From NCBI GenBank assembly GCA_035559595.1, contig DATMBF010000005.1, positions 100,905 through 164,904 of the forward strand: a stretch of DNA of 64,000 nucleotides, given 5' to 3'. Made by a program: the position numbers and the translations under genes. Of this stretch, positions 1 through 24,869 are shown in pieces. Source of the DNA: Bacteroidota bacterium (lineage in GTDB: Bacteria > Bacteroidota > Ignavibacteria > UBA10030). The notes below the pieces were generated by a model. It was not told the origin of the DNA. It was given only the letters and a program-made list of their open reading frames with translations, and did not search any database. Position 1 is the stretch's first letter. Every line of letters starts with the position of its first letter.

Positions 1-375
1 TGCCACCACATCAAGCACCTTTTCGAGGTGTTCGTGGTGCGCATGTTCAGCCTGGATTTGAGCGATGGAACGTTCCATGAAGAGCTTTGTGGGAAAGCGG
101 ACCATCTGCATGAGCTCAATGTTCGCATACATCGCTTCGCTGAAACGAAAGCCCGGCATCTCCATCCAGCGGAGGATCAACTCCGGATCATCCAGAGCCC
201 ACCGTTGCGTTACCTTGTGCTCAAACACCGCCATACGAGATACCTGAGCAGCGATCTCCGGATTATTCGAGATCGCCTCGATAATGAGAAACTGTAGGTC
301 TTCCGTCTCTTGCTCTTGTGAGTAGATTGTTGTGAATGCACCGAGAATGAGTGCAAGAAAAAGCACACGAATCAT
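1..375 (-). CDS. Outer-membrane efflux protein, TolC/OprM/CzcC family. N-terminal 125 aa only; the gene runs off the window start.
   Basis: The reverse-strand ORF is open from the ATG at 375 to position 1 with no stop. The N-terminus is MIRVLFLALILGAFTTIYSQEQETEDLQFLIIEAISNNPEIAAQV: a signal peptide followed by the 'L..EAI..AL.NNPEL' motif typical of TolC-like N-termini. It is absent from the ORF track because no stop codon lies in the window. Confidence 0.5.
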   Translation of the reverse strand, partial: MIRVLFLALILGAFTTIYSQEQETEDLQFLIIEAISNNPEIAAQVSRMAVFEHKVTQRWALDDPELILRWMEMPGFRFSEAMYANIELMQMVRFPTKLFMERSIAQIQAEHAHHEHLEKVLDVVA

Positions 376-5246: not shown

Positions 5247-6629
5247 TCAAGAATGCCTGTCCGTTTTGATTTTCCGCCGCCAATAGAAGTATGCCGGGAT
5301 CCCCGAGACCATCATCATCGCACCGATGATCGAGTCGCGAGGGTTTTCGACGATTGCGTTCGCAATGAGATAAAAAGAGAACGCGATAAAGAGGCCAGGC
5401 GTGTAAGGATATCCCCACGTCTTGTAGGGGCGATGGACATTCGGCCAACGTTTGCGGAGAAGGAAAACACCGAAGCAGGACATTGCATAAAAGACCCAGG
5501 AAGCGAAAATGACGTAGGTGAAGAGTTGCTCATAGGTACCGGTAAGAACCAGAAAGCATGCCCAGCCCCCTTGAGCGAGAAGCGAAGGGATTGGGGTCTT
5601 GTATTTCGGGTGGACGGTGGCGAGCGATTCAAAGAAGACCCCCTCTTTTGCCATTGCATAGTAAATGCGTGCGCCCGTGAACACGTAGCCATTGTTGGCG
5701 CCAAACGTGGAGAGGATAACAGCGAGGGTGACGAAGGAGGCACCGGCAGGACCCATGATTACGGTCGCGGCGTCTGATGCGACAAGCGTGGATTGAGAAA
5801 GCTGTTCAATCGACAAGACGTAGACATATGCAACGTTGATGAGGAGATAGAGGACAATGATGATGATTGTTGAGAGGATAAGGGATCGATGCACATTGTG
5901 ATCCGGATTCTTCACTTCTCCGGCGACGAAGGTGATTTCAATCCAGCCGTCGTAAGCCCAGAGAACCGCAATCATTGAGATACCGAAGGGACCCAGCATT
6001 GATGTCAATGAATCCGCAGGGAGGAGGGGTTGGAAATTGGTTAGCGATCCACCGCTCAGCATGAAGCTGAAGAGAATCAAGAGGCCCAATGCCGCAATCT
6101 TGGAGAAGGTAAACCCATTCTGAATCCATGCCCCAAGCTTCACGCCAAAACAGTTGATAACAGTCAGAAGAAGAATCGAGGCGATAGCGATTGTTTTGAT
6201 GGCAGTATCATCGAGCGGAATGAAAAAGGCGAGATAGGTGGCAAAAGCAACGGCAATCGCCGAAATCGATCCGGAGATGATCACGACAAAAGCTGACCAG
6301 CCATAGAGGAAACCCCAGAGCGGACTGTAAATTTCGCGGAGGAAAACAAACTGTCCCCCTGCTCTCGGCATCAGCGCGCCAAGCTCCGCAATCGAAAGTG
6401 CTCCGAACAGACTGACCACACCGCCGAGCACCCAGACAAGGAGAATCATCGACGTTGAGGGGAGATGACCTGCAATGGAGGCCGGCACAATGAAGATCGC
6501 AGAGGCGATGATGCTGCCGACATTGATCATCGTGGAGTCGAGAAGGTTGAGCTCACGCCGAAGACCGTTCGACGTATCCGACACGGCCTGCAAACTCTTC
6601 GATTGTGGAGTCAACGACTCAGGAATCAC
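5247..6629 (-). CDS. APC family amino acid permease
   Basis: A 460-aa, roughly 12-TM protein with the N-terminal motif 'LNLLDSTMINVGSIIASAIFIVP' typical of amino acid/polyamine/organocation transporters. Confidence 0.8.
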   Translation of the reverse strand: MIPESLTPQSKSLQAVSDTSNGLRRELNLLDSTMINVGSIIASAIFIVPASIAGHLPSTSMILLVWVLGGVVSLFGALSIAELGALMPRAGGQFVFLREIYSPLWGFLYGWSAFVVIISGSISAIAVAFATYLAFFIPLDDTAIKTIAIASILLLTVINCFGVKLGAWIQNGFTFSKIAALGLLILFSFMLSGGSLTNFQPLLPADSLTSMLGPFGISMIAVLWAYDGWIEITFVAGEVKNPDHNVHRSLILSTIIIIVLYLLINVAYVYVLSIEQLSQSTLVASDAATVIMGPAGASFVTLAVILSTFGANNGYVFTGARIYYAMAKEGVFFESLATVHPKYKTPIPSLLAQGGWACFLVLTGTYEQLFTYVIFASWVFYAMSCFGVFLLRKRWPNVHRPYKTWGYPYTPGLFIAFSFYLIANAIVENPRDSIIGAMMMVSGIPAYFYWRRKIKTDRHS

Positions 6630-7813
6630 GATGCGTTACGTGCGCGTCGGTAGAATTGTTTGAGGAGGGATTGAAAATGATAGACGCCGAGTTCGGTTTC
6701 CGGCGAGAAACGGCCCTTATGGTAGGCAATGGATTCGAGCCCCTTCTGGACCCGTTCACAGATCTCGATGTCTTCAAGCTGAATCTTGTGGCTGTATTCA
6801 ATATCCTGCTCGATCATTCGTAAGGCTTTGGGTGAGCTGATGTCGTCGTAACAATAATCGAAGATGACCCGCGTGTGATTGTGATCCACCGGCAGAACAA
6901 GGTTCGTTTGTAGCCGACCGGGGAGGATATTCAACATGAAGTTCGGAAACACGAAGTAGTAGAATGCTCTCCCATGATCGGCAGAATAGAAATTCTCTCC
7001 TTCGGTAAAAGGGCTGTATTGGAGGGAATAGAAATTGCTCGTCTCCGTCACATAATGGTTATAGTCCAGAAGCTTGGCAAGTTCCGGATGAACGTACGGC
7101 AGGTGGTAGCCTTCAAGATAGTTGTCGATGTAAACCTTCCAGTTGCAGCGAATGTCGTATGTGACTCGTCTGAAGAACGTTTTGGTCTTCAGGTCGAAAG
7201 GCGTGATGCGAGCAGGTATGTCTTTCAGTATTGAGTTGAGCGATGTTGCCGTGCCCGACAAATCCACGAACACCAGACCTTCCCATTCCTCCAATCGAAT
7301 CGGCACCAATCCAAAATCCTTCTTGTCGAAAAGCTCGACACGATTGAATTTCGGGGTGCCACGGAGGCTCCCATCGAGAAGGTACGTCCATCCATGGTAG
7401 TGGCATTGGAGAACTTTTGAGTTGCAATCTTCGATGGCCAGTGGCCCACCTCTATGTCTGCAAACGTTGAAGAATGCCCGGAGCCTATGGTCGTCCCCAC
7501 GAACGACGAGGATCGGATTCCCTGCCGCCTCACCAACAATTTGGTCTCCCGGGTTCTGGAGCTTCGATACATGTCCGACACCTTGCCAAGTTTTGCCAAG
7601 CACGAATCGAAGATCAATCTCATGAAAGCGTGGATCTGTATACCATGTGGATGGAATGGTCTCCGCTTGTTCCAGTGGAGCAAGAGAAAGATCTTCTTCC
7701 GTAAAATCAGGAAGAGATGAACTATGGATTTGCATTTCTTTGGGAGATAGAATAAGCTGGTTGTCGTTGTTCTTCGCGCTGCCCAATGTAGTGACCCGAC
7801 GCAGAAAATGCAA
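6626..7813 (-). CDS. Rieske [2Fe-2S] non-heme iron oxygenase alpha subunit-like (ring-hydroxylating or choline-monooxygenase-like)
   Basis: Rieske motif 'CRHRGGPL...CHYHGWTY' and a downstream mononuclear iron site 'EGYHLPYVHPE'. It overlaps the permease gene by 4 nt. An alternative start is MQIHSSS at 7735. Confidence 0.75.
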   Translation of the reverse strand: MHFLRRVTTLGSAKNNDNQLILSPKEMQIHSSSLPDFTEEDLSLAPLEQAETIPSTWYTDPRFHEIDLRFVLGKTWQGVGHVSKLQNPGDQIVGEAAGNPILVVRGDDHRLRAFFNVCRHRGGPLAIEDCNSKVLQCHYHGWTYLLDGSLRGTPKFNRVELFDKKDFGLVPIRLEEWEGLVFVDLSGTATSLNSILKDIPARITPFDLKTKTFFRRVTYDIRCNWKVYIDNYLEGYHLPYVHPELAKLLDYNHYVTETSNFYSLQYSPFTEGENFYSADHGRAFYYFVFPNFMLNILPGRLQTNLVLPVDHNHTRVIFDYCYDDISSPKALRMIEQDIEYSHKIQLEDIEICERVQKGLESIAYHKGRFSPETELGVYHFQSLLKQFYRRARNAS

Positions 7814-7899
7814 TCGGTCTCGCTTGAATGAAACAACGGTTAGCCGTATAATTGGGGGGGCGGAAACTTCAACGCGTTTTGTTCGTTACAAGAGATCAC

Positions 7900-9420
7900 A
7901 TGCAATTCACGAAGACCATACTGCTTGCAGGTATTGTTGTCCTTGGCTATTCCCCCGCGCACTCTGAGAGTGATGACTGGGCGAAAGTCCATACGCTCAC
8001 GGTTCGCGGCATTGACGAGCTCTACAACCTCGAAATGGAGAAGGCGGATAAGACCTTCGATGAGGTCATTGCCATGGCGCCGAATGATCCACGCGGATAC
8101 TTTTTCAAGGGGATGATTTACTTCTGGACCTACAACCTCAACAAAGATCGGCAGGCGTACGACAAGTTCATGGAGCTCTCTGATCGCGTTATCGTCATCT
8201 GTGAACGTCTTGTAGATCAGAATCCGCACAATGCTTTGGCCAAATTCTACCTCGGCGGCACGTATGGTTATCGCGGACTTGCCTTTCAGCGGAACGGGTC
8301 GTTACTCAAAGCGGCGTGGGACGGCAGGAAGGGTTACTCATACCTGAAGGAGGCGGTCAGCCTCGATTCTACATTGTATGATGCACAGATGGGCTTTGGT
8401 CTCTTCAGCTACCTCGTGGCGAAAGTGCCCAGGTCTTTCCGTTGGATTCTGAATGTGCTTGGCTTCAGCGGCGATCTGGAGGGGGGATTAAATTCACTTC
8501 GATTAGCAGCTGAACGGGGACTCTACACAAAAAGTGAGGCCTCGTTCTTTCTCGCTCAGTTTCTCTTCGTAGAGGAACGATTCGACGAAGCGTACTCTTA
8601 CATGAATGGGCTCCTCAAGAAGCATCCCGAAAACACACTCTTCCTCGTTTTGCATGCGCAATGGGAGTTCCGGCAGGAGCGACTCGAGTCGGCAATGGAA
8701 TCGGCGCGGAAAGCAATTGCGATCAATGAGAGAAAGAAGGTGAAGTTGGGGGATGAGTTCGCCTACAACATTCTCGGCTCGGCCCATTTTGCGCTGAACG
8801 AATACGAGCAGGCAAAAAAGAATTTTGAATCCTACCTCGATCGCGTTGAAAACAAGAGCCAGGTCTTCAACAACACGTACTACCGCCTTGGTCTCTGCTA
8901 TGAAATGCTGGGGCAACGTGAGCGAGCGGTGTGGGCTTATCGGCAGATGCAAAACAGCGACAATCAATGGAATGCCCATTTTTATCGTCGTGGTCAACAG
9001 CGGCTCAAGAGACCGTTGGACGAAATTGACCGTCTGCTCATCCGGGCGGAGAATGCCTCATCGCTCAGGAGATACAAAGAGGCGAATGAGCTCTATGAAC
9101 GCGCCACAAGGTTTCAAAACATCGACTCTGAGCGGCTTGCCCTGGCACTCTACGGCCTGATTCAGGTTTCTTACGAACAGGAACGCTTCGATGATCTTCA
9201 ACGCTATGCGCAGCAACTGTTTGCCTTGAAGGTGCAAGAGGAGCTTTGGGTTGTGCCCCATACGCATTTCCGGTTGGGACAAGCGTATGCCAAGCGCGGA
9301 TTGGTCGCTGAGGCTCGAAGACAGTTTGAAGCTATCGACCGCTACGATAAGTACGATTATCAGATGCGACTGGAAAGCAGAGTGGAGTCAGAACTTGCAA
9401 AATTGGGCGGGGTGAATTAG
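7900..9420 (+). CDS. Secreted TPR repeat protein
   Basis: The start was chosen at MQFTKTILLAGIVVLGYSPAHS (signal peptide); the ORF track start is at 7852. Multiple TPR-like helical repeats follow (e.g. 'YYRLGLCYEMLGQRERAVWAYRQ'). Confidence 0.6.
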   Translation: MQFTKTILLAGIVVLGYSPAHSESDDWAKVHTLTVRGIDELYNLEMEKADKTFDEVIAMAPNDPRGYFFKGMIYFWTYNLNKDRQAYDKFMELSDRVIVICERLVDQNPHNALAKFYLGGTYGYRGLAFQRNGSLLKAAWDGRKGYSYLKEAVSLDSTLYDAQMGFGLFSYLVAKVPRSFRWILNVLGFSGDLEGGLNSLRLAAERGLYTKSEASFFLAQFLFVEERFDEAYSYMNGLLKKHPENTLFLVLHAQWEFRQERLESAMESARKAIAINERKKVKLGDEFAYNILGSAHFALNEYEQAKKNFESYLDRVENKSQVFNNTYYRLGLCYEMLGQRERAVWAYRQMQNSDNQWNAHFYRRGQQRLKRPLDEIDRLLIRAENASSLRRYKEANELYERATRFQNIDSERLALALYGLIQVSYEQERFDDLQRYAQQLFALKVQEELWVVPHTHFRLGQAYAKRGLVAEARRQFEAIDRYDKYDYQMRLESRVESELAKLGGVN

Positions 9421-9582
9421 TGCAGGAGCAAGGAGATTGCCTTCACAGCCATCCCTACTGTGTGCTGAAGGCAACTTCGGCAGACAGGCGATGAATCGGC
9501 TGGCTGCTTTGCTCGAAACCCTTTGGGTGTTGTCGAATAAGGCGTTAACTTTGATGGATGCCGGGGAATTGACAAAACACCA

Positions 9583-10326
9583 GTGAACTGTTCTGATACG
9601 GTGCAGCTTGCACAAATTATCATGGAGCGCTTCGAGCTCTTCGGCTTCTTGCACATCCTTTTTCTCGCCTCTGTTCCTTGTGCTGCCGGTTTTCTCGTAT
9701 TGCTCTCCAAACACTTCCCACATAGGCAGAAAGTTATTCGGTATCTTCTCGCCGCGTCTCTTGCATTCAACGAGCTCCTTTCTTTCGGCTACAAGATTCA
9801 TCAGGGATGGTTGAGTTTCCCGAATACGCTTCCCCTTCATCTCTGTGATCTCACCATCTGGTTGACAGCATTCAGTCTCGTCTCGTTCAATCGAAGAGCG
9901 TTTGAGCTAGTGTATTACTGGGGACTTGCCGGCACCACCATGGCGATTCTCACCCCCGATCCAAACGCTCTTTCGACATCCGTTGCTACGGTTCAGTTCT
10001 TCCTTTCCCATGGGGGTGTCGTCGCGGCTATTCTTTTTGTCGCCTGGTCCGGCCAACTTCTTCCACGGCCAAACTCTTTCTGGAAAGCTTTTCTGATTCT
10101 TAACGCTTACGCTGCAGTCGTGGGAGTCTTCAACTGGGTGTTCGACACGAATTACTTTTACCTCTGCCGTAAACCCGCGGAGGGGACGTTGCTCGACTAC
10201 CTCGGTCCGTGGCCCTGGTATCTTCTTGCAGGCGAAGTTCTGGCGCTTGGGTTGTTTGTTCTGTTGAGCTTGCCACTCAGGAAGAACAGTAATCTGCTCC
10301 CTCGTAATTCTCAACTTCCCAATTAA
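9583..10326 (+). CDS. Integral membrane protein resembling the TIGR02206 (YwaF-like) family
   Basis: A 247-aa polytopic protein. 'LHLCDLTIW' and 'QFFLSHGGVVAAILFVAW' resemble the conserved core of that family. An alternative start is MERFELF at 9622. Confidence 0.45.
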   Translation: MNCSDTVQLAQIIMERFELFGFLHILFLASVPCAAGFLVLLSKHFPHRQKVIRYLLAASLAFNELLSFGYKIHQGWLSFPNTLPLHLCDLTIWLTAFSLVSFNRRAFELVYYWGLAGTTMAILTPDPNALSTSVATVQFFLSHGGVVAAILFVAWSGQLLPRPNSFWKAFLILNAYAAVVGVFNWVFDTNYFYLCRKPAEGTLLDYLGPWPWYLLAGEVLALGLFVLLSLPLRKNSNLLPRNSQLPN

Positions 10327-10327
10327 T

Positions 10328-10762
10328 CTACACTTTAAACTCAGAACTTGAAACCGTTCGGTTGGAAATCACTGACGCGGTCCGCAACCCTCCGATGACA
10401 TGGCACAAGACTCCTCCCACACTCAGGAATGCAGCCACGAGCGTCAACGGTCTCGTCGGACTCGCCATAGGCGGTTCAACGAAGAAAGCGAGGATGAAGA
10501 GAATCGGGGCAAGGAAGAGAATACGAGAACCGAATGTTTGAAGTTTGTTCCTCCACTTCGTAGAGCTTTCGGTGAGATAGAGTCCAAGACAGAGATTGAG
10601 GAGCCCCGAGAAGAGAATGTACACATGGTTAGCCCGATACAGAAAGCGAATGCTTTCGTTACCGGCATGCAGATCCGGAAATCCCGATCGCATGTAGGCC
10701 CCCGTTGCGAGAAAGACAAGACATGTCAAGAATCCGACGATGAGATGGAGTTTCCTGTGCAT
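10328..10762 (-). CDS. Small 4-TM membrane protein, last gene of the cytochrome operon
   Basis: A 144-aa ORF with four hydrophobic helices. Its start overlaps the stop of the upstream octaheme cytochrome gene. Confidence 0.5.
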   Translation of the reverse strand: MHRKLHLIVGFLTCLVFLATGAYMRSGFPDLHAGNESIRFLYRANHVYILFSGLLNLCLGLYLTESSTKWRNKLQTFGSRILFLAPILFILAFFVEPPMASPTRPLTLVAAFLSVGGVLCHVIGGLRTASVISNRTVSSSEFKV

Positions 10763-10764
10763 AG

Positions 10765-13029
10765 CTACTCCTTTCTGAGAGCTTTCAGCAAGTCTCGGCG
10801 CATTTGGTTTGCCGATTCGTTCTGAGCGTCAAAGATGAGTCCTTCATTTACCGCGGCCAGCGCTTTTTCGTATTGCCGTGTCAGGATGTAAGCACGTGCG
10901 AGATAGAAATGGCCGAGTGCCATTCCGAAATCCAAGTCGACGGCTTTTTCGTACAACGGAATTGCCCTCTGCGGTTGATTAGCCTGAAGGTAGACATTTG
11001 CCAGATTGAAATAGGCGAGAGGCTCAAAAGGATTCTGCTCAATCGCCTGCTCGTATGTCACGATAGCGCGGCTCATGTTGCCTTGAGCCGCGTATGCAAT
11101 GCCGAGATTGACCAGTGCTAACGATTGAGCCGGATTGAGATCCAAACTCATTCGGTAATGTCTTATTGCCTCGCCGTAATCTCCAGCAGCCGCATACGCA
11201 TGTGCGAGGTTGAGATGGAGGTCGGCGTCATTGGGCGACACTTCAAGTGATTTCAGATAGAACTCTATTGCGCCGTGGGGATTCTCGCTCTCTCGCTCCC
11301 GATCGCCAAGAAATCCCAGCACCAAACTTATCCGACGGCGTAATGCATCTCTGTCTTGAGCATTGGCTTCCCCAAGGATTGAATTGATTCTTTCTTTGCG
11401 CTCCGCGAGCAGAAGGGCGCTCAGTGCAATTGCACGAACATCAATGTCCGAATGCCGGGCCAATTTCGAGAGCGAATCCAAAACAAAGGCAGACACTTCC
11501 TTGCGATCGGTACTAAGGTAGTTTTCAAGGAAGAAGGAAACTCCGGCAAACTGAGCCATCGGATGACGTGCAGAGGGGAGGAGAACCCTTCGTGCTGCAT
11601 CTTCGAGAGTTTTGCTCTGGTGAGCGGAAAGCAATCCGCGGACGATTTCTGGATGGGGCTTGATTTCACCGTACCATCTGCGCATAATGCCCTCGAGCGA
11701 ATCGGGCTTCATCGAGGAATGACATCGGCTGCAGGCGCTCTCTATCCCAAGCTGTTCGTCGAACACTGGCCGGGGAATCGATATTGTGTGGTCCGAGCGC
11801 GCAAAGCGAATAGATTTGCCCACCTCGGGATGCTGCAGGTAGGGCATATGGCATGCCACACATCGGCTTCCGTCGGACCCCTCCTTGTGAAATGTGTGTC
11901 GCTGGGGTGCTTCAGCCTTGCTGGAGTGGCAGCCTGTACATTGGCGATCGTCAAACCGGTCGGGCAACGGATTTCGATTGATGTCGCGATAGCCCTGACT
12001 GTGCGGGTCGTGACAACTCACACACGTCATGGATCCGTTCAAATAACAGTCGCTAAAAAAATGGCCCTCCTGATAAGCGAACGTTTTGGTCCGTCCGTCG
12101 GGGTGAAGGTGAGACTCACCCAGCAGTGGCAGTTTGAGGGAGTAATACCTCTCGAGCTTTGATCCGGGGAGATATCCTTGCTGAAGAACATCTTTTACCG
12201 CATGACATTGAAAGCAAACAAGAAGTGATTCATCTTTTGACAGTGTGGAGAGGGAACGCAATCCAATATCGTCTGTCATTCTACCGCTGCGGGCAAGCTG
12301 GACGTGTCGCTTTGCCGGGCCATGACACGACTCACAATCTATCGTGAGAGAGGTGACGTGAGTCTCGTATTTCTTTCGGTTCTGATCGAATCGAAGAGAG
12401 ATCTGACTTCCGTGACATTCCTGGCAATGAGAAAACCGACGGTCAGTGCCAAGCACCCGCGTTGGCGGCCAATCGCTGCATTCGGCAAGCCTGAGTTCGT
12501 CGTTGATGGGGACCCACCCTTTGTTCCCTTTTCCGATCGTATTGGCGAACCACATTCGTCCTTGTTTGCTGTAATCGAAGGGAAGAAACCGCAACGTCCC
12601 GTCAGGGAATTGTGTTACGAAACCCTGTGTACCGCCTCCAACCATATGACCGCGTCCGATAACTCCATCGACTCGAAAAACCCTCTCTCTGGCATTCGAT
12701 GGACGGACTGTAAAAACATATTCTCCGTTTTGAGCGACGGATGGAATGACAACTGCATCCTTGAAGCGGATCGGTGTTCCGTCAAATGGTGCTATAAGAG
12801 TTTCGGGGATTGGCAGTCCGCCGGCATTGCCGTGTGTTGAGTGAACCCAGGCATCGTATTGCTCTGCGTGACAATTCTTACAGGTTTCAGCTCCCGCAAA
12901 GTCCGAGAACGAGATCGACTTCGTGGCTGTGAATGACGTTTGAGAGGTACTATCAAAGCGGGATGATTCGAAGGCGAGAAAGAGTCCCAGCCAGCAGGGG
13001 AGCAAGGCGAGGAAGAGTTGCGGCCTCAT
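10765..13029 (-). CDS. Octaheme c-type cytochrome with C-terminal TPR repeat domain
   Basis: Eight CXXCH motifs (CKNCH, CQECH, CESCH, CFQCH, CVSCH, CTGCH, CVACH, CSRCH). The first is followed by 'AEQYDAWVHSTHG' (CXXCH-x6-W-x2-S-x-H, as in the NapC/NrfH/c554-type family). The C-terminal 250 aa or so are TPR repeats (e.g. 'YFNLANVYLQANQPQRAIPLYEKAVDLD'). The start was chosen at M15 (signal-like MRPQLFLALLPCWLGLFLAF), giving an ATGA overlap with the upstream gene. Confidence 0.8.
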   Translation of the reverse strand: MRPQLFLALLPCWLGLFLAFESSRFDSTSQTSFTATKSISFSDFAGAETCKNCHAEQYDAWVHSTHGNAGGLPIPETLIAPFDGTPIRFKDAVVIPSVAQNGEYVFTVRPSNARERVFRVDGVIGRGHMVGGGTQGFVTQFPDGTLRFLPFDYSKQGRMWFANTIGKGNKGWVPINDELRLAECSDWPPTRVLGTDRRFSHCQECHGSQISLRFDQNRKKYETHVTSLTIDCESCHGPAKRHVQLARSGRMTDDIGLRSLSTLSKDESLLVCFQCHAVKDVLQQGYLPGSKLERYYSLKLPLLGESHLHPDGRTKTFAYQEGHFFSDCYLNGSMTCVSCHDPHSQGYRDINRNPLPDRFDDRQCTGCHSSKAEAPQRHTFHKEGSDGSRCVACHMPYLQHPEVGKSIRFARSDHTISIPRPVFDEQLGIESACSRCHSSMKPDSLEGIMRRWYGEIKPHPEIVRGLLSAHQSKTLEDAARRVLLPSARHPMAQFAGVSFFLENYLSTDRKEVSAFVLDSLSKLARHSDIDVRAIALSALLLAERKERINSILGEANAQDRDALRRRISLVLGFLGDRERESENPHGAIEFYLKSLEVSPNDADLHLNLAHAYAAAGDYGEAIRHYRMSLDLNPAQSLALVNLGIAYAAQGNMSRAIVTYEQAIEQNPFEPLAYFNLANVYLQANQPQRAIPLYEKAVDLDFGMALGHFYLARAYILTRQYEKALAAVNEGLIFDAQNESANQMRRDLLKALRKE

Positions 13030-14699
13030 CGGTTTCCTTCTTGCGACCAGGCAGGACCCTCGCAGGTACACAGCGTGCGAATGAATCGAACGAGACTCCA
13101 GATCTGCTCGCGGGTAAGTGTCTTTCCAAAGGCGGGCATAAAATGACTTTTGCCAAGAACTCTACCGCCACCATAAATTCCATCAAAAAGCGTGTCGTCG
13201 CTTCGCACCGACATGACAGAAGGATCCGAGTGTTTTGCGGGTTGCACAGGGAGGTAGCGGGCGTTAAATCCGTCTCCGTTGCCTCGCAGACCATGACACG
13301 GTGAGCAATAATGCGTGTAAAGGCGCCCGGCTTCGGTTGTGTCAGGTCGGCCGGGATTTCCATGATCGATGATGTTGAGTTGTGGAAGATGTTGAGGTTT
13401 CTTGTCGCGCGTTGATAAAAACGTAGCGAGCAATTCGACATCCGACTTCGGCAATGGGAGGGCAGGCATGGCACTCTCATGAACCGTGCCCTGAGGATCC
13501 TTGATTATTCGGTAAACAAAGGTCGGTTGAAGTCTCGGCTTGAGCGAAGAAAGGTCCGGGCCAACCATTCCTCCCTTACCATCGAAGCGGTGGCAGCCGA
13601 AGCAGGGAAGTTGCGTGCGTAAGATGTTCTCTGCTTTGCGTTGAGAGAATGGCGAAAGACGAGTGGGGGTAAACGTCGCGTCGACATCGCTCTTGAGCGA
13701 AGCGAGGTGTGATGTGAGCGTTTCCAGTTCATCGGTTGTGAGGTCATAAGAGGGCATTCTGCTGCCGGTTCCCGGATGAAAACCGAAAGGCCGGATCGTG
13801 TGCGGTTGTGCGAGGTATGACCGAAGCCATGTCTGATGGACACGAGAGCCTTCTGTGCTTAAATCCGGCGCGTTGTGCCGTTGATTCACTCCACGCATTG
13901 CATGACACCCGCCGCAATTCTGAAACTCGAAAATCCTTGCTCCGTCTTCAGCGGTAACGGTCGGGTTCGCACTCCGAACTCTCTGGTATGCGACCTCCAT
14001 TGTTTCACGTTCCTTTGCCCCAAAGCTCATCAGATAGCTAACCATAACCTGAATCTTGCTTCCTGCATCCTGAATCACCTCTTTCAACTCGTTCTTTTCC
14101 TGATCCTTGCTATAAACTTGCGCCGGCATTGGTGATCCGGGATCAAATGCCTGAGGCAACGCGAGGTATTGGACAAGCCAGTTTGCTTTCGCTCTCAAAC
14201 CAACGCTGACCAAATCCAGAGCAATTGGTCCGCCCTGACCTTCGAGCTTGTGACAGAATGTGCATTTCAACTCATCGACGATCATCTTGCGGGCCTCGGC
14301 AGTACGAGGAGACTTGCGGTCCCACGACTGAACAATCGTGGGGAACGCCGGCAGGGGTTGGTCGGTTTTCAACCGTTCCTTCAAATACAACACTAACGCC
14401 AGCCTCTCCCGCTCGGTTAACCGGAAGTTGGGCATTTGTGTCTTACCGATGTGCAAGCGCACTCGTTTGGGATTCCCAAGATAGTCAAAGAGATACGCTT
14501 CTGGATAACGCAGCCCGGCGTAGCTCAACGATGGAGCTTTGGTTTCAATCTCAGCAGCAGGTTCAACCCCCGGATGACAGGCGCCACAGGCAAGCTCAGT
14601 CACAAGTTGGCGTGCAGATTGGGATTGGGCAGAAGGTGTCAATACGAACACAGCAATGAAGGCAATGGCGAAGTGAACAGACTTCACGAGGGGGACCAC
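13026..14699 (-). CDS. Pentaheme protein made of five class-I cytochrome c domains
   Basis: Five CXXCH motifs (CGACH, CTFCH, CGGCH, CFGCH, CSPCH). Each is followed by a 'GG/GP' turn and a distal Met-Pro (MPNF, MPAQ, MPSY, MPAL, MPAF), the usual Met sixth-ligand arrangement. There is an N-terminal signal peptide. Confidence 0.8.
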   Translation of the reverse strand: MVPLVKSVHFAIAFIAVFVLTPSAQSQSARQLVTELACGACHPGVEPAAEIETKAPSLSYAGLRYPEAYLFDYLGNPKRVRLHIGKTQMPNFRLTERERLALVLYLKERLKTDQPLPAFPTIVQSWDRKSPRTAEARKMIVDELKCTFCHKLEGQGGPIALDLVSVGLRAKANWLVQYLALPQAFDPGSPMPAQVYSKDQEKNELKEVIQDAGSKIQVMVSYLMSFGAKERETMEVAYQRVRSANPTVTAEDGARIFEFQNCGGCHAMRGVNQRHNAPDLSTEGSRVHQTWLRSYLAQPHTIRPFGFHPGTGSRMPSYDLTTDELETLTSHLASLKSDVDATFTPTRLSPFSQRKAENILRTQLPCFGCHRFDGKGGMVGPDLSSLKPRLQPTFVYRIIKDPQGTVHESAMPALPLPKSDVELLATFLSTRDKKPQHLPQLNIIDHGNPGRPDTTEAGRLYTHYCSPCHGLRGNGDGFNARYLPVQPAKHSDPSVMSVRSDDTLFDGIYGGGRVLGKSHFMPAFGKTLTREQIWSLVRFIRTLCTCEGPAWSQEGNR

Positions 14700-15256
14700 T
14701 AGAAGGTGAATGTCAGATCGGTATTTCCAAGACTGGAGAGGAAGTCTTGCATCAGTCCCCCATTCCTAATAATGACAATACTGTAGTCGTTGAACCGGCC
14801 GTTGATCCCGTAGGTCCATCGTGTGAAGATGATTTCACCAGTTGACGTGAACTTCTTTGGATACCTGACTGGCTCGAGGCGGAAGTCTGGCTGAAGGTTC
14901 GGGTTTGAATCTACCCAAGCAAGGAGGCCTCGATTTCCAGATCGATCGGCGGGTAAATCCATTCGGAATGTTCTTGTAGCTGTCGTGCCCGAGATCGTTT
15001 TGGTTGAAAGAAAAGCGTAGGGGGGAGAAACGTCGAATGAGTCTACTACTTCAAGTGTATTAAAGACAGCAAAATCCGAGACAAAAGCGAGGATCACATC
15101 CTTTGTGGCAAGTGAGTCCGGAAGTTGAATTGACCCCGAGACAGTTGTGATCTCGGGCTCTTCTGGTTGTTCGTCTTGTTGTAAACAACCGCCGGAGCGA
15201 AGTGCGAGAACGAAAAGAATCAGAAGAAAGATCCTTACATGCCACATAACGACCAC
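14699..15256 (-). CDS. Lipoprotein, first gene of the cytochrome operon
   Basis: Signal peptide with lipobox LALRSGGC. The 185-aa protein is beta-rich and ends in TFTF. No family recognised. Confidence 0.5.
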   Translation of the reverse strand: MVVMWHVRIFLLILFVLALRSGGCLQQDEQPEEPEITTVSGSIQLPDSLATKDVILAFVSDFAVFNTLEVVDSFDVSPPYAFLSTKTISGTTATRTFRMDLPADRSGNRGLLAWVDSNPNLQPDFRLEPVRYPKKFTSTGEIIFTRWTYGINGRFNDYSIVIIRNGGLMQDFLSSLGNTDLTFTF

Positions 15257-21570: not shown

Positions 21571-23247
21571 TTAACGAAGCCTCTCGAGTGCCCTCAGTTT
21601 TTCTTCAGCTCGCCGCTTATATTCGAGCGTGGCTGTGTGTTGCGGATCGATCAGAAGGACTTTGTTCCACTCATCGAGTGCCGCTTTATACTCTTCTTTG
21701 ATGTAGAGCTGAACTCCAGCTCTGAAGATTTTGTCGATCTCAGTTTTTAGTGCTTCTCGCGCACGCTCGAGGTACGTCCTGGCATCACGATGTTTCTCGT
21801 CCCGCTGTAACACTTCGACCATTGTGTTTACAGCAACCCAATAATTCGATTCATCGAAGGCGGCTTTTCCACGCTCAAAGATTTCTTGCACTCTCTTCCC
21901 CCGCACGCTTTCGAGACCCTTTCGCGCGTCGGCATTGCGAGGCTCCATGGCGAGCACTCGCTCGAACTCTCTTTGTGCTTCGTCCAGCTGGTTGCGGCTC
22001 AACAGCGTGCGTGCGCGATTCAAGATCGTCTGGACGTTCTCCTTCATCATTCCCTCTAATTCGGTAAGCTTTACCATGATGCTATCATTCAGAGGGTCGA
22101 GTTCAAGCACCTGCTCATACGAACGCCGCGCACGCTCGAAATCTCGCCGCGCTCGAAGACTGTCACCAACCGAGAGCAGCCTTCGCACATTCGATTCGAG
22201 AATTGGTCTAACTGCCTCCAGCCGCTTTTCAACCTCGGAGTGATTCGGTTGCATTTTCAGAATTGTCTGATATCGTTTGATTGCCTCAACATAGTTCTTT
22301 CGTTCTTCAAGTTTCGATGCTTCGTCAAACAGGGCAGAAACGTTACTATCGAGCTCCGCTTGCGTTTGTTCAATCATTGCATGCGCATTGTGAAAATATT
22401 CATCGTACTCGAGAGCCAGAATGAATTGGTCACGGGCGTCCGACAGCCGTTTTTCTTCATATGCTTCCATCGCTGCTTCAAAATGCTTTGAACGTAAGTC
22501 TTTTGCAGCTTCGCTGAATCTGAAACTTACCGAGAAGACAATGCCGGCTTTGCCGGCCGCGAGCTCAAGTTTCGCAAAGTTGGATTGAAGACTGACCCCA
22601 CCGCGGATTTCCTTAAATGCACGAGATCCAACTTGGAGGCCCAACCAATCTGCAGCCAAGAGTTCGGAACCGACAACGAGTTCACCCCGCTCTGCTTTTT
22701 GCCATCCCGCCTGAACTCTCCAAGTGTCACGCAGGAGCCAAAACCCGACACCTGCTTGCAAACCCATCGGCGAACCGAAAGGCTGCTTCGGCAGATCGTT
22801 GACACTCACGCCGAAATGAAAGCCGGAATTCGCAGAAACGGAGTCCGGAAAATGGAGTGCAGATCCGACCGAGAAAGAAAACGTTTCCTTCGCATTTCGA
22901 AAAAGGTTCAGCACCGCTCCGATCGTGTGTACGTCGCCGATAAGTCCGCCATAGCCGACGGTGTATTGTGTTGCTTGACCGAGTTGCGCAATTCCGGCCC
23001 CAAACGTACCTACAAAGGGGAAAAAATGCGCAGCACTCATAGAAGAGAAATTTGAAAAGCGATTTGTACTGAGGAGAAACTCCGATTGATGGAGGCGAGC
23101 CATCTCAGCCGGATTAGAAAACAAGGCTGACGGACGGGGGAGCCACATACTTGAACTTCCGCCAAGTGCATAATCGTTACCCCCTGTTGTTTGTGCAGCG
23201 AGAGGAGAAATAATGAAAACAAGAAGAAGGTGGGGGAGGTATTTCAT
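21571..23247 (-). CDS. Secreted protein with an N-terminal beta-rich (possibly PorP/SprF-like barrel) domain and C-terminal TPR repeats
   Basis: A signal peptide and 250 aa or so of alternating-hydrophobic beta-like sequence containing an 'FSNPAEMARL' (NPA) motif. The rest is TPR-like repeats (e.g. 'YEQVLELDPLNDSIMVKL'). The gene overlaps the upstream cyclase gene by 4 nt. Confidence 0.55.
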   Translation of the reverse strand: MKYLPHLLLVFIISPLAAQTTGGNDYALGGSSSMWLPRPSALFSNPAEMARLHQSEFLLSTNRFSNFSSMSAAHFFPFVGTFGAGIAQLGQATQYTVGYGGLIGDVHTIGAVLNLFRNAKETFSFSVGSALHFPDSVSANSGFHFGVSVNDLPKQPFGSPMGLQAGVGFWLLRDTWRVQAGWQKAERGELVVGSELLAADWLGLQVGSRAFKEIRGGVSLQSNFAKLELAAGKAGIVFSVSFRFSEAAKDLRSKHFEAAMEAYEEKRLSDARDQFILALEYDEYFHNAHAMIEQTQAELDSNVSALFDEASKLEERKNYVEAIKRYQTILKMQPNHSEVEKRLEAVRPILESNVRRLLSVGDSLRARRDFERARRSYEQVLELDPLNDSIMVKLTELEGMMKENVQTILNRARTLLSRNQLDEAQREFERVLAMEPRNADARKGLESVRGKRVQEIFERGKAAFDESNYWVAVNTMVEVLQRDEKHRDARTYLERAREALKTEIDKIFRAGVQLYIKEEYKAALDEWNKVLLIDPQHTATLEYKRRAEEKLRALERLR

Positions 23248-24869
23248 TCTACTGGTGCGTAATCAATGCGGTGGACGGGGACTCGCTCCTGTTTTCCTTT
23301 GATAGCGACCTTCCCTTCCGATCGTGTCTTGTAATTGCCGTTGAGTCTCGCAACGACGGTATCGCCAACGAGAATCTGGTCAGCCTCTGCGATGGCGCAC
23401 AATCGAGCAGCGAGATTGACCGTATCACCGATGGCGGTGTAGTCCATTCTGTCTTGTGACCCGATGCTTCCCATCACGGCTACTCCTGTCGCAATACCGA
23501 TGCCAACCTTGAGTGTTATGTCGCCGCTGGCCCCCCGTTCCTTGTTGAGTTTTGCCACCGCACATTGGATGTCCACTGCCGCCTTAACGGCCTGCTGCAC
23601 CATCTTCTCGCCTGTGAAGATGCTCATAATCCCGTCGCCCAAGAATTTATCAACTACTCCGCCGTTCTGATGAATGATGGTTGTTTGCAGGTCGAGGTAG
23701 TGGTTCAACACGACGACAACCTCTTCAGGCCACTTACTTTCGGAAACAGAAGTGAAGTTTCGGATGTCTGTGAACATGGCGGTAATGACTCGCCGGCTTC
23801 CGCCCAATGTCACCTCTTTTCCCTGGGCGATCATTTGAGCTGTCGCTCTGGAAACAAACTTCTGCATCTCCGTCTTTTCCCGAATCTGCAAGACCATCAT
23901 GTTGAATTCATGGGCGAGGCTGCCTAACTCGTCTTTGACACGAGTGGCTACCGAGACTTTGAGGTCTCCCATCCCCACACGTCTTGCAGCATCGGCAAGA
24001 ACGATAATGATATGGACGGCCTTCTTCGAGAAGATCGCCACGAGAGCAATTACAATTATAGAGACAATCGAGGCCGTGAGAATGATAGTGTTTTTGAGCT
24101 CTTCGATTGGAGCAAGCAGGATGGCTTTCGAAAAGCCAACGGAAGCGGCCCCAATAAGGATCTGCTTGGTTTCATTTCCCTCTCTCTTTGACACAGTAAC
24201 CGCCTTGATAAATCTGAACGACTCGGGAGACTCGATCGCCCGTGCAGAATCAGTCCTTGCAAGGAGGTCCCACTCCGCCAACGAAATCAGCTTGTTCATG
24301 CTGTCAGGTACCACATGTGCAACAATCGTTCCCGTCCGATCGACGACGAACAAATGATCGAGCCCCGGAATGTTCTGCTTGGTGATATTCTTCACGTAGT
24401 CCTGCAAGACGATGTAAGAGCCCAGGAGAAGATTATCCTCGGCGACAGCGGCAAGACTCTGCACGATGTTCGTGCCCAACACTTGTGTTTGTACGCGAAG
24501 CTCCCGCTCCTGGATCTGCAGCGCAATGGTGCTAATGATGATCGTAACCACAATTACTGAACCGCCGACGATGAGGCTCAGCTTAATCCGAATCTTTAAT
24601 CGGAGGAAGGTCTCAACAGCATAACCCCACGCGGCCTGGAGGTTCTCTTTGATCGTGCGAGCAATGCGCCGAATAGCAGGTCTGGCTTTCGTTGTCTGTT
24701 GTTGAACGGAGTCCTGAAGAAGGAGCGTGAGTCGCGTGATTTCTTTCCCGAAACGTTTGGCGAGTGGTATGGTGTGATGAAACGCCTCTTCAACGTACTG
24801 TCGCGCGGCCGCGATCAGTTTCGACGCTGATGCGAGGATCCGTTTCGGGTCAAAGGAAGGAGTGGACAT
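23244..24869 (-). CDS. Membrane-anchored class III adenylate/guanylate cyclase with HAMP domain
   Basis: TM segments, a HAMP-like linker, then CYCc motifs 'VTAMFTDIRNFTSVSE', 'VDKFLGDGIMSIF' and 'GIATGVAVMGSIGS...DYTAIGDTVNLAARL'. Confidence 0.8.
   Translation of the reverse strand: MSTPSFDPKRILASASKLIAAARQYVEEAFHHTIPLAKRFGKEITRLTLLLQDSVQQQTTKARPAIRRIARTIKENLQAAWGYAVETFLRLKIRIKLSLIVGGSVIVVTIIISTIALQIQERELRVQTQVLGTNIVQSLAAVAEDNLLLGSYIVLQDYVKNITKQNIPGLDHLFVVDRTGTIVAHVVPDSMNKLISLAEWDLLARTDSARAIESPESFRFIKAVTVSKREGNETKQILIGAASVGFSKAILLAPIEELKNTIILTASIVSIIVIALVAIFSKKAVHIIIVLADAARRVGMGDLKVSVATRVKDELGSLAHEFNMMVLQIREKTEMQKFVSRATAQMIAQGKEVTLGGSRRVITAMFTDIRNFTSVSESKWPEEVVVVLNHYLDLQTTIIHQNGGVVDKFLGDGIMSIFTGEKMVQQAVKAAVDIQCAVAKLNKERGASGDITLKVGIGIATGVAVMGSIGSQDRMDYTAIGDTVNLAARLCAIAEADQILVGDTVVARLNGNYKTRSEGKVAIKGKQERVPVHRIDYAPVE

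Follow-up and report, generated by a model that had tools for sequence, protein, structure and literature searches.

Octaheme cytochromes that carry a covalent tail of tetratricopeptide repeats (TPRs) make up a bacterial family, large and widespread but unstudied, whose relatives include the heme enzymes MccA and OcwA. The member from which our analysis starts lies on the reverse strand of the window, by which we mean the whole 64,000-nucleotide stretch of DNA that was analysed, and places a helical TPR tail behind eight heme sites in one polypeptide (Table 1). It is encoded by a single open reading frame (ORF) with no internal stop, ending in the stop codon at 10765-10767. Translation from its ATG start yields 754 residues and translation from an alternative GTG start at 13071 yields 768; the NCBI protein HWP81195.1, which is 100% identical, agrees with the ATG.

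The eight CXXCH motifs on which the original prediction was built are present (at residues 50, 202, 232, 272, 336, 364, 390 and 433), and no CXXCK or CXnCH variants were found in the 754-residue protein. Chance would account for very few of them, as 20,000 shuffles of the same protein gave a mean of 0.018 motifs and never more than one. Combined with the hydrophobic signal or anchor at the N terminus, the motifs supply both features that define a c-type multiheme cytochrome, and heme loading is predicted on this basis. AF2 folds the full chain into a single compact and confident model (pTM 0.84), in which residues 310-440, the C-terminal half of the heme domain, are modelled with moderate confidence only (pLDDT 46-77); the heme domain folded alone gave a poorer model (pLDDT 66).

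Table 1. Features of the octaheme-TPR gene and of its operon neighbours, in window coordinates.
Feature	Position	Strand	Basis
Whole gene: octaheme c-type cytochrome, HEAT-like linker and TPR tail	10765..13029	-	Uninterrupted ORF
N-terminal hydrophobic segment, aa 1-23, MRPQLFLALLPCWLGLFLAFESS	12961..13029	-	AF2 helix aa 4-23
Heme 1 motif and c554-type signature, aa 50-66	12832..12882	-	CKNCH-x6-W-x2-S-x-H
β-sheet domain between heme 1 and heme 2, aa ~85-175	12505..12777	-	AF2 strands aa 92-174
Heme 2 motif CQECH, aa 202-206	12412..12426	-	Aligns with heme 2 of MccA and OcwA
Hemes 3-8: CESCH 232, CFQCH 272, CVSCH 336, CTGCH 364, CVACH 390, CSRCH 433	11719..12336	-	
α-Helical HEAT-like linker, aa 442-583	11281..11706	-	AF2 helices aa 442-580
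Five tetratricopeptide repeats, aa 584-753	10771..11280	-	Pfam TPR_1, TPR_2, TPR_16 and others above cutoffs
Partner: 557-aa periplasmic cytochrome c with five class-I domains	13026..14699	-	Pfam PF00034, PF13442
Lipoprotein-like protein, 185 aa, no Pfam match	14699..15256	-	Lineage-specific operon member
4-TM protein, 144 aa, starting 3 nt downstream of the octaheme gene	10328..10762	-	Lineage-specific

The architecture had been thought uncommon, a view that the database searches overturn. A scan of GTDB species-representative genomes uncovered more than 314 loci, with Gemmatimonadota/Longimicrobiales, Ignavibacteria, KSB1 and Latescibacterota as the main hosts, and a whole-protein search returned 1,805 matches at E ≤ 1e-5 among 8,000 candidates scored, a number that may include TPR-only matches. 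The best 120 whole-protein matches cover 92-100% of the protein, except for one N-terminally shortened match at 83%, and the heme domain alone retrieves 269 clusters at 50% identity with E < 1e-30. All eight motifs recur with similar spacing in 119 of the 120 homologues. The fusion itself is real, as originally claimed: the window ORF is continuous, and 81 of the 83 homologous ORFs that are complete, drawn from independent assemblies, encode the octaheme and TPR parts in a single frame, a set that extends to homologues only about 30% identical. Members carry either no name, the generic label of a TPR protein, or a wrong name (NrfA c552 or Ycf3), and no description of a covalent octaheme-TPR protein turned up in the literature library that was searched.

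Ahead of heme 1, a hydrophobic 15-mer is found in 103/120 homologues, in many of them preceded by a long tail rich in lysine and arginine, and a lipobox-like motif occurs in only 5/120. From these sequence features we infer that the N terminus is an uncleaved signal anchor, which would tether the protein to the inner membrane and leave the remainder in the periplasm.

OcwA and MccA are the nearest relatives of the heme domain, which falls within the c554/MccA/OcwA branch of the NrfA superfamily. Its first motif reads CKNCH-AEQYDA-W-VH-S-T-H, the exact CXXCH-x6-W-x2-S-x-H signature that the original prediction had reported; the region matches Pfam PF13435 (Cytochrome_C554) at 24.8 bits against a cutoff of 20.8, aligns with the N termini of OcwA, MccA and c554, and contains three residues, W61, S64 and H66, that are invariant in both of our homologue sets (n=48 and n=76). 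Of the NapC/NrfH/c554-type proteins with which the signature had been linked earlier, c554 is supported by PF13435, whereas NapC/NrfH is not, as there is no match to PF03264 at E ≤ 0.01. Sequence searches of the PDB, among them a profile search restricted to the heme-domain alignment because the all-column version was swamped by TPR proteins, returned OcwA (6I5B, E=1e-10 and 2e-12) and MccA (4RKM, 1.8e-6) as the nearest solved structures, and Foldseek with the heme-domain-only model gave clean matches to the same two proteins. The nearest relatives in sequence and fold are thus c554/MccA/OcwA/OmhA members rather than NrfA/ONR or HAO. Between hemes 1 and 2, the β-strands are modelled at pLDDT 76-97 and bear a conserved loop, G125-x-G-H128-M-x-G-G-G-T-Q135; a β-sheet domain of this kind is otherwise described for MccA and OcwA only (PMC6703420).

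Members of the c554/MccA/OcwA clade carry a catalytic five-coordinate heme 2, and the heme 2 region, (N)CQECHGS, is the best-conserved motif of the octaheme-TPR family. In a set of 76 homologues, the most distant about 30% identical, the universal histidines outside the motifs number exactly six (H66, H242, H343, H378, H381 and H414); the last five of these, together with M395, which is kept in 75/76, are the conserved distal ligands of the heme 3-8 stretch. By this count of conserved distal histidines heme 2 has no universal sixth ligand, and it is predicted to be five-coordinate and possibly catalytic. The pattern agrees with the ligation of OcwA, in which six hemes are bis-His, one is His/Met and heme 2 is open (PMC6703420), and with a rule by which the catalytic heme of clade 3 is located in the N-terminal module (bioRxiv 10.1101/2022.02.24.481543). 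In the close subfamily, either H128 (47/48) or H323 (45/48) could ligate heme 2; in the wider set, H323 is replaced by F or L in 21/76 sequences and H128 is absent or replaced in 55/76. Many invariant polar residues that are not ligands cluster around the segment that aligns with the distal His-His of OcwA, here D311-G-R313-x-(R/K)-T-F-A-Y319-Q320, and the strongly conserved non-ligand polar positions include R313, Y319, Q320, Q135, R191 and D311. As for cysteines outside the heme motifs, C328 is invariant and C184 is variable (40/48 and 30/76 sequences).

The C-terminal third had been read as TPRs throughout. The repeats are indeed C-terminal, but they make up only the last ~23% of the protein, and residues 442-583 are instead a HEAT-like linker. 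This linker begins at the point where OcwA and NrfA carry a C-terminal three-helix bundle, and the alignment with residues 376-451 of OcwA extends into its first helix. It has two conserved motifs, D528-x-D530-V-R and R564-x-R566-W, is matched by Pfam HEAT_2 in remote homologues, and is retained in family members devoid of TPRs. Further on, Pfam TPR models match residues ~580-745 in three stretches each (TPR_1, E=4e-28, 96 bits; TPR_2, E=9e-28, 94 bits), and AF2 places ten helices, or five TPR hairpins, at pLDDT 93-98. Structures of designed consensus TPRs (CTPR) match at E~1e-10 in Foldseek, and the full-length model compared with the PDB has TPR proteins only among the 50 matches listed. The number of repeats varies across the family from none to more than ten, and TPR-less forms without a fused partner, of about 606-620 residues, exist.

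The only conserved neighbour of the octaheme gene is an adjacent gene for a class-I cytochrome c. In the window this partner has its CXXCH motifs at residues 38, 146, 262, 366 and 465, and the ATG of the octaheme gene overlaps the stop codon of the upstream partner gene by 4 nt (ATGA), an overlap that suggests translational coupling; the genes of the operon are separated throughout by start/stop overlaps or 3-nt gaps. Orthologues with two, four or five His/Met hemes are adjacent in 54 of the 74 loci with sufficient flanking sequence, in several phyla, 53 of them immediately upstream and one downstream (locus L073), and the remaining 20 loci have no adjacent cytochrome c. In 17 protein clusters, whose lineage includes Candidatus Binatia, the partner and the octaheme domain are joined in a single in-frame fusion. 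Complete fusions of this type carry 13 hemes in 1,142-1,242 residues, lie within contigs of 0.3-1 Mb, and have a Pro/Ala linker in place of the membrane anchor and no TPRs. One apparent fusion, at L059, was rejected: the upstream gene had been read through in frame, and the octaheme gene shows its own start and membrane helix, so this locus is counted among the 53 with an upstream partner and the genuine fusions are the P0136-type proteins. The idea that TPRs become dispensable once the partner is fused holds only partly, given the unfused TPR-less forms, and the argument is weak and may rest on a single evolutionary event.

The pentaheme protein, the lipoprotein and the 4-TM protein named as neighbours in the original prediction are all present as described. 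The outer-membrane or secretion partner that it envisaged fared less well, as the 88 other loci hold no outer-membrane or porin-like gene, and what is conserved instead is the class-I cytochrome c. Homologues of the lipoprotein in the corresponding place (42-74% identity), which carry an L-x-G-C lipobox, are confined to L089 and L090, the closest relatives, and a homologue of the 4-TM protein (65% identical) to L090; both proteins are absent from the 88 other loci, and the 4-TM protein has a weak, sub-threshold match to NCBIfam NF041604. Clustering of 624 neighbouring ORFs brought out no further conserved neighbour, and synteny at the level of single lineages was limited to SusC/SusD-like proteins, a BNR/sortilin-like protein, a USP-like protein and MacB-like permeases. 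The amidohydrolases, TMEM164-like protein, TPR_39-like protein and Rieske oxygenase of the window are not conserved with the octaheme family, and no clue to a substrate was found in the gene neighbourhoods. A scan for promoters and terminators found sites no more numerous than in shuffled sequence. The remainder of the window is given over to housekeeping functions (SUF, DXP synthase, RibD, UvrD and DinB) and contains no respiratory complexes.

We propose, with about an even chance of being right, that the protein is a redox module tethered to the membrane in the periplasm, probably enzymatic and with heme 2 open, which bears a HEAT/TPR docking scaffold and is wired to the pool of high-potential cytochrome c. 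The octaheme protein and its co-translated class-I cytochrome c, with His/Met hemes of high potential, would form a two-component redox module; electrons would move between the octaheme bis-His chain and the class-I chain, which in turn would deliver them to, or receive them from, the system of general periplasmic cytochromes c and terminal oxidases. The direction of this flow is uncertain, since electrons leaving His/Met class-I hemes for bis-His hemes would have to run uphill. The heme 2 pocket would be lined by H128, M129 and Q135 of the β-loop and by the D311-Q320 segment, and the protein would most likely act as an oxidoreductase on a small nitrogen or sulfur compound, probably an anion. 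The three-helix bundle usually found at the C terminus would have grown into a HEAT-like stalk capped by five TPRs, and this solenoid may act as a built-in scaffold for docking or oligomerisation, most plausibly for the partner cytochrome.

A bolder version of the same idea, which we consider rather unlikely, is that the family constitutes an unrecognised class of periplasmic enzymes, MccA/OcwA-like, which would act on a nitrogen or sulfur compound at heme 2, with the reaction coupled directly to the aerobic, high-potential cytochrome c chain through the dedicated class-I cytochrome, which would dock on the TPRs. The core of such an enzyme would be the octaheme domain and the HEAT stalk, with the TPRs optional; candidate substrates may be hydroxylamine, nitrite, NO, sulfite or thiosulfate, and the hosts may comprise Gemmatimonadota, Longimicrobiales, Ignavibacteria, KSB1, Latescibacterota, Binatia and Acidobacteriota. 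Any enzymatic reading has to reckon with c554, which has a five-coordinate heme and yet is physiologically an electron carrier.

The protein could be purely an electron carrier, with eight six-coordinate hemes forming a membrane-tethered wire or capacitor and TPRs that recruit some other protein, such as the lipoprotein, an outer-membrane component or a periplasmic dehydrogenase. We regard this view, in essence that of the original prediction, as possible, if on balance doubtful. The close subfamily does keep eight well-conserved non-motif histidines (the six universal ones, H128 and H323), enough for eight bis-His hemes, but H128 and H323 are not kept across the wider family, whereas all eight hemes are, and a simple wire would not usually conserve polar residues other than ligands so strongly. 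TPRs are general-purpose modules for binding proteins, the closest structural matches, OcwA and the 6QVM protein, are cell-surface terminal reductases, and the window operon does encode a lipoprotein; however, the lipoprotein, the 4-TM protein and outer-membrane or porin-like genes are missing from the 88 other loci, and the N terminus resembles an inner-membrane anchor. The host phyla, moreover, are mostly aerobic heterotrophs and not known as metal reducers. In favour of a wire, separate TPR and NHL proteins are common in cytochrome clusters for extracellular electron transfer, where they have been proposed to aid the assembly of complexes (PMC10376724).

Classification as the ammonia-forming nitrite reductase NrfA (cytochrome c552) is highly improbable, despite the names that MBI4429033.1 and other members have received ('ammonia-forming cytochrome c nitrite reductase subunit c552'). 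Both proteins belong to the same multiheme superfamily, and Pfam PF02335 does score above its cutoff (27.4 against 24.1 bits), but the match is local, spanning 46 of 438 profile positions (241-286) around the CxxCHMP heme. Where NrfA has five hemes, with a CXXCK motif, the window protein has eight and a β-domain, and no CXXCK. No NrfA model appears among the best 25 of 39 NCBIfam matches, NrfA is weak in PDB searches (E=9e-6 to 0.2) and ranks behind OcwA, and neither NrfH nor NrfBCD was found among the neighbours. The structurally characterised relatives all reduce nitrite or NO in vitro (bioRxiv 10.1101/2022.02.24.481543), which fits a nitrite reductase; membership of NrfA is nevertheless effectively refuted.

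We give equally little credence to the TPR part being a cytochrome c maturation chaperone of the NrfG/CcmI kind, fused to its client and aiding heme attachment in the octaheme domain or in the neighbouring cytochrome. NrfG and CcmI are TPR proteins that bind apocytochromes (PMC3601427, PMC12285233), and Pfam TPR_CcmH_CycH does match, but at 20 bits against a cutoff of 42, as is typical of cross-matching between TPR models. Eight canonical CXXCH motifs need no dedicated lyase, TPR-less members retain the same eight hemes, and the whole chain folds into one compact and confident model. Finally, the joining of two genes by a sequencing or assembly error, to which one homologue (L083), with its in-frame stop precisely at the junction of the heme and TPR parts, might point, has next to no probability and is refuted by the continuous window ORF, the identical NCBI protein and the single-frame homologues.

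The family is uncharacterised, and the redox-module mechanism proposed here is plausible. Soils and sediments are rich in Gemmatimonadota and their relatives, whose periplasmic redox chemistry is poorly known. A conserved octaheme protein of MccA/OcwA type is found in hundreds of species, wired to class-I cytochromes instead of a quinol dehydrogenase; if catalytic, it could be an overlooked step in the nitrogen or sulfur cycle of oxic or microoxic habitats. Wrong labelling as NrfA inflates metagenomic counts of nrfA, and with them of DNRA, and a TPR tail of variable length and a naturally occurring fusion with 13 hemes together offer a ready system in which to study how multiheme proteins dock their partners.

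Among known systems, OcwA, the nonaheme cell-surface terminal reductase of Thermincola potens, provides the closest comparison. Both proteins have the same c554-type heme 1 signature followed by a β-sheet domain, both contain CxxCHGPxxxH, CxxCHxxH and CxxCHMP motifs, and they align over the helix that follows the last heme. With eight hemes to the nine of OcwA, the window protein lacks OcwA heme 5, as MccA does. OcwA has two open hemes, each capped by a His-His pair, and H281/H282 aligns with (R/K)315-T316. In place of the short three-helix bundle that closes OcwA, the window protein continues for about 310 residues as a HEAT/TPR solenoid; OcwA resides on a Gram-positive cell surface, whereas the window protein is apparently anchored in the inner membrane of a diderm host and, unlike OcwA, has a class-I cytochrome c as its partner.

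MccA (SirA), the octaheme copper-dependent sulfite reductase of Wolinella succinogenes, likewise has eight hemes and a β-sheet domain between hemes 1 and 2. HMMER pairs hemes 1, 2, 3, 5, 6 and 7 of the two proteins one to one, and hemes 4 and 8 correspond by order only; the alignment is too fragmentary to place the catalytic residues of MccA (Y123, K208, Y285, Y301, R366 and K393) or its copper ligands (C399/C495). Heme 8 is bound by CX15CH or CX17CH in MccA and by a canonical CSRCH in the window protein, as in 119/120 homologues. MccA has neither a TPR tail nor a membrane anchor, both of which the window protein has (the anchor by prediction), and mccBCD-type genes (for a PPIase, an FeS protein and an NrfD-like quinol dehydrogenase) were found neither in the window nor in 92 related loci.

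Compared with c554 of Nitrosomonas europaea (1FT5/1BVB), a soluble tetraheme electron carrier of 211 residues, the window protein has in addition the β-domain, four more hemes, a membrane anchor and the HEAT/TPR tail; the NapC/NirT/NrfH proteins defined by PF03264 are membrane-anchored as well, but carry four hemes rather than eight. TPR modules are known to accompany multiheme cytochromes, and a role in protein-protein contacts has been proposed for them (PMC10376724, PMC3601427). In those systems, from the stand-alone TPR/NHL proteins of multiheme clusters to NrfG and CcmI, they are separate polypeptides, whereas in the window protein the TPRs are covalently joined to the cytochrome.

The octaheme cytochrome and its TPR array are read from one uninterrupted frame, as originally predicted. 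The product from the ATG (see table below) matches NCBI HWP81195.1, annotated as 'tetratricopeptide repeat protein [Bacteroidota bacterium]', at 100% identity; this match, together with the 4-nt overlap (ATGA) of the ATG with the stop of the gene upstream and an AAGGA seven bases before it, favours this start over an in-frame GTG at 13071, which would add 14 residues. The eight CXXCH motifs hold up against chance (mean 0.018, maximum one, in 20,000 shuffles of the protein), and a motif scan of the 754 residues found no CXXCK or CXnCH variant. Heme 1 reads CKNCH-AEQYDA-W-VH-S-T-H, an exact instance of the predicted CXXCH-x6-W-x2-S-x-H signature, and the Pfam PF13435 (Cytochrome c554) match exceeds its cutoff. 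The C-terminus matches Pfam TPR models with E-values as low as 4e-28, and the full-length AlphaFold2 model (mean pLDDT 83, pTM 0.84) shows a terminal array of genuine TPRs, separated from the heme domain by a stretch of HEAT-like helices that are not TPRs.

Features of the octaheme-TPR protein, its operon and other genes of the window
Feature	Position	Strand	Remarks
Octaheme-TPR gene	10765-13029 (ATG at 13029, stop 10765-10767)	minus	unbroken ORF, 754 aa; third of four packed genes
CXXCH motifs (n=8)	aa 50, 202, 232, 272, 336, 364, 390, 433		motif scan
Beta-sheet domain	aa ~85-175		between hemes 1 and 2; AlphaFold2 full-length model, pLDDT 76-97
HEAT-like, non-TPR helices	aa 442-583		~140 aa, between heme domain and TPRs
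Five TPR hairpins (ten helices)	aa 584-753		AlphaFold2, pLDDT 93-98
Lipoprotein-like gene	14699-15256	minus	first of four
Class-I cytochrome c partner	13026-14699	minus	second of four; 557 aa, five class-I domains
4-TM protein gene	10328-10762	minus	fourth of four; 144 aa
Rieske ring-hydroxylating oxygenase	6626-7813		just beyond operon
Iml2/TPR_39-like TPR protein	7852-9420	plus	522 aa, separate, just beyond operon; counterpart in L090 at 7917-9425
TMEM164-family membrane protein	9583-10326		just beyond operon
TPR protein	21571-23247		558 aa; start overlaps cyclase stop
Sensor adenylate/guanylate cyclase	23244-24869	minus	sCache + HAMP
ORF	35222-38779	plus	1,185 aa
Sensor adenylate/guanylate cyclase	56634-59144	minus	CHASE2

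The heme domain is not of the NapC/NrfH type: PF03264 has no match in the protein, and the closest proteins are OcwA and MccA instead. OcwA of Thermincola potens (6I5B) is the best PDB sequence match (E=1e-10, or 2e-12 with a heme-domain profile), aligning in three blocks that span both proteins, followed by MccA (4RKM, E=1.8e-6), with NrfA and c554 marginal. A beta-sheet domain between hemes 1 and 2 is common to MccA and OcwA only (PMC6703420), and a domain of this kind is present in the AlphaFold2 model. On the basis of these matches and this shared domain, the protein belongs to clade 3 of Soares et al., which comprises c554, MccA, OcwA and OmhA and has a catalytic five-coordinate heme in the N-terminal module (bioRxiv 10.1101/2022.02.24.481543).

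The gene lies in a closely packed group of four, with two amidohydrolase genes directly upstream, and the sole neighbour conserved across related loci is the class-I cytochrome, each domain of which has a CXXCH followed downstream by an MP motif, consistent with His/Met-ligated hemes. An orthologue is found immediately upstream in 53 of the 74 loci with enough upstream sequence, and immediately downstream in one more (L073). The partner exists in two-, four- and five-heme versions, the diheme form (~240 aa) being 47-53% identical to the last two domains of the window partner. Outside the window, the lipoprotein, the two amidohydrolases and the 4-TM protein occur in the two closest relatives only (L089 and L090) and are absent from the 88 other loci; the lipoprotein homologues there are 42-74% identical and carry an L-x-G-C lipobox. 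When 624 neighbouring ORFs were clustered, no further neighbour proved common to the family, and no NrfH/CymA/NrfD-type quinol dehydrogenase, porin or secretion component was among them. The partner favoured by the evidence is the class-I cytochrome, not the outer-membrane or secretion component once suggested. The 4-TM protein has a weak, sub-threshold match to NCBIfam NF041604; two of its histidines, each within a predicted membrane segment (RANH46VYILF and C-H120-x-x-G), are conserved in its only homologue found (L090, 65% identity), and the protein could bind heme b or interact with quinol.

Other genes were observed in these surroundings. In L090, and not elsewhere, synteny extends to the TPR_39-like protein and the Rieske oxygenase. 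In KSB1 and some Gemmatimonadota, a BNR/sortilin-Vps10-like protein of ~1,070 aa is encoded no more than a few kb from the octaheme gene (L004:10979-14188, L005:8474-11692, L007:9405-12611 and 12 loci in the neighbour clustering), and in KSB1 (L004, L007) a 606-aa protein with no Pfam match and 73% mutual identity precedes the pentaheme cytochrome. Elsewhere in the window there are two sensor cyclases, the one with sCache and HAMP domains followed by a TPR protein, and a 1,185-aa ORF with no Pfam match at E<=1e-5.

The link between octaheme protein and partner is at times covalent. Seventeen protein clusters of 1,142-1,242 aa (P0287, P0285, P0136 and 14 related clusters; among the loci, L091:9001-12585 and L092:9001-12729) are Rosetta-stone fusions with five class-I domains in frame with the octaheme domain, giving 13 hemes in a single polypeptide, and come from a lineage that includes Candidatus Binatia; one of them is named 'c-type cytochrome [Candidatus Binatia bacterium]'. 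The fusion genes are complete and internal to contigs of 0.3-1 Mb. The partner is therefore usually separate and sometimes fused. The fusions replace the membrane anchor with a Pro/Ala linker and keep the HEAT-like stalk, and TPRs are absent from them; TPR-less unfused forms of ~606-620 aa also occur, and tail lengths beyond heme 8 group into classes of ~171-215, 226-254, 287-393 (the majority, including the 321 residues of the window protein) and >450 residues. Because of these TPR-less forms and variable tails, the family core is the octaheme domain with its HEAT stalk, and the TPR array is a plastic appendage. Directly upstream of the L092 fusion gene lies a GMC-family oxidoreductase.

The N-terminus points to the inner membrane. 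The first 23 residues are hydrophobic with no obvious cleavage motif, and in 103 of 120 homologues a strongly hydrophobic 15-mer precedes heme 1, often after a K/R-rich tail of up to ~50 residues and before a Pro-rich linker (consensus PPP); only 5 of the 120 have a lipobox-like motif. Together these features are those expected of a signal anchor with N-in/C-out topology, which would make this a periplasmic protein tethered to the inner membrane, and they make an outer-membrane or secreted location less likely.

Exactly six non-motif histidines (H66, H242, H343, H378, H381 and H414) are essentially invariant across 76 members, down to ~30% identity, and M395 (in CVACHM) is kept in 75 of the 76; by analogy with the c554 structure, H66 would be the distal ligand of heme 4 and H242 that of heme 1. 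As only six histidines and one methionine are available for eight hemes, heme 2 (CQECH, residue 202) is probably left without a universal sixth ligand, as clade 3 predicts. OcwA has six bis-His hemes, a His/Met-ligated last heme and two open ones, hemes 2 and 5 (PMC6703420). Conservation in the family peaks at the heme 2 motif and the residues around it, (N)CQECHGS being one of two automatically picked most-conserved patterns. Invariant polar residues that are not ligands cluster in a beta-domain loop, G125-x-G-H128-M-x-GGGTQ135, and in D311-G-R313-x-(R/K)315-T-F-A-Y319-Q320, a segment that aligns with the distal His-His stretch of OcwA. As in MccA and NrfA, the basic residues of this candidate site would be favourable to an anionic substrate. 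Within the close subfamily, however, H128 (47 of 48) and H323 (45 of 48) are kept and could serve as heme 2 ligands.

We consider it highly probable that this is a periplasmic multiheme redox protein partnered with a class-I cytochrome. A fuller reading, to which we give even chances, is that a membrane-tethered MccA/OcwA-type octaheme protein exchanges electrons with its dedicated high-potential partner, which would link it to the general cytochrome c and oxidase system, with heme 2 as the probable substrate site. The HEAT/TPR solenoid, extending from the position of the NrfA-type oligomerization bundle, would offer a docking or oligomerization surface, most plausibly for the class-I partner. 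Bis-His hemes usually have lower potentials than His/Met hemes, so the thermodynamically easy direction would be substrate oxidation feeding an aerobic chain, the alternative being reduction of a strong oxidant. That the protein is an enzyme we propose only tentatively; c554 illustrates that an open heme alone does not prove one. The main rival is that the protein serves purely as an electron wire, with TPRs that recruit some other protein; we judge it less likely.

NrfA identity is unlikely despite database names, since the PF02335 match is confined to 46 of the 438 profile positions, those near the CxxCHMP heme. Members are called 'tetratricopeptide repeat protein', 'predicted CXXCH cytochrome family protein' or 'HEAT repeat domain-containing protein', and some are misnamed 'ammonia-forming cytochrome c nitrite reductase subunit c552' or 'Photosystem I assembly protein Ycf3' (MBI4429033.1 (P0010), P0050, P0301, P0306, P0313 and P0345; GBD31213.1 (P0096)), leaving the family without a proper name. 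With CXXCK absent and the NrfA match only local, such misnamed members could inflate nrfA/DNRA counts in metagenome surveys, and the family is widespread, uncharacterized and hosted by environmentally dominant phyla. It is likewise unlikely that the TPR part is a maturation chaperone.

An assembly artefact is an unlikely source of the fusion, with the C-terminal region in the heme-domain frame in 81 of 83 complete homologous ORFs. Of the two exceptions, L087 has no detectable C-terminal homology, and L083 (6857-9133; Longimicrobiales chromosome OZ241371.1), the sole split, encodes a 509-aa heme domain and a 248-aa TPR part in the same frame with one in-frame stop at the junction, which may reflect a sequencing error, mark a pseudogene or be a real split. 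Of 8,000 candidates scored in a whole-protein search, 1,805 reached E<=1e-5, any TPR-only matches included. The best 120 have 710-830 aa, 92-100% coverage, 48-73% identity and eight similarly spaced CXXCH motifs, except for one N-terminally truncated 629-aa protein (83% coverage). The heme domain alone (aa 1-470), searched against 1.84 billion representatives, gave 4,650 matches at E<=1e-3, of which 269 reached E<=1e-30, and most eight-heme matches have a C-terminal extension long enough for TPRs; the order heme domain, HEAT_2, TPRs is kept at only 31-35% identity. GTDB species-representative genomes hold more than 314 loci, the best 80 mainly from Gemmatimonadota and Longimicrobiales, with Ignavibacteriaceae, Methylomirabilia, Cyclobacteriaceae, Cytophagia, Marinimicrobia and Deferribacteres also represented; KSB1, Latescibacterota, Acidobacteriota and Binatia members come from protein searches. 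The fusion, in frame and widespread, is therefore genuine and common, and what was taken for an unusual architecture is uncommon only in the literature, where full-text searching turned up no account of an octaheme cytochrome covalently joined to TPRs. The closest idea in print is that multiheme gene clusters encode TPR or NHL proteins as separate polypeptides (PMC10376724). Several Longimicrobiales and Gemmatimonadota carry two paralogues per genome (L056 and L080 in OX638356.1; L049 and L081 in CBDBTX01; L045 and L057 in JADFPO01; L013 and L014 in DASSNR01), and in the L049/L081 pair the class-I cytochrome adjoins one copy and is absent beside the other.

Among known systems, MccA is described as the equivalent of OcwA minus OcwA heme 5; where aligned, HMMER pairs its heme motifs 1, 2, 3, 5, 6 and 7 one to one with those of the octaheme-TPR protein. 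Orthology was rejected, as heme 8 is a canonical CSRCH here and CX15CH in MccA, the copper-binding cysteine pair is not recognizable and the mccBCD context is absent. The heme domain is a new branch of a known clade, and the protein is set apart by its covalent HEAT/TPR tail, its predicted signal anchor and its connection to a class-I cytochrome in place of a quinol dehydrogenase.
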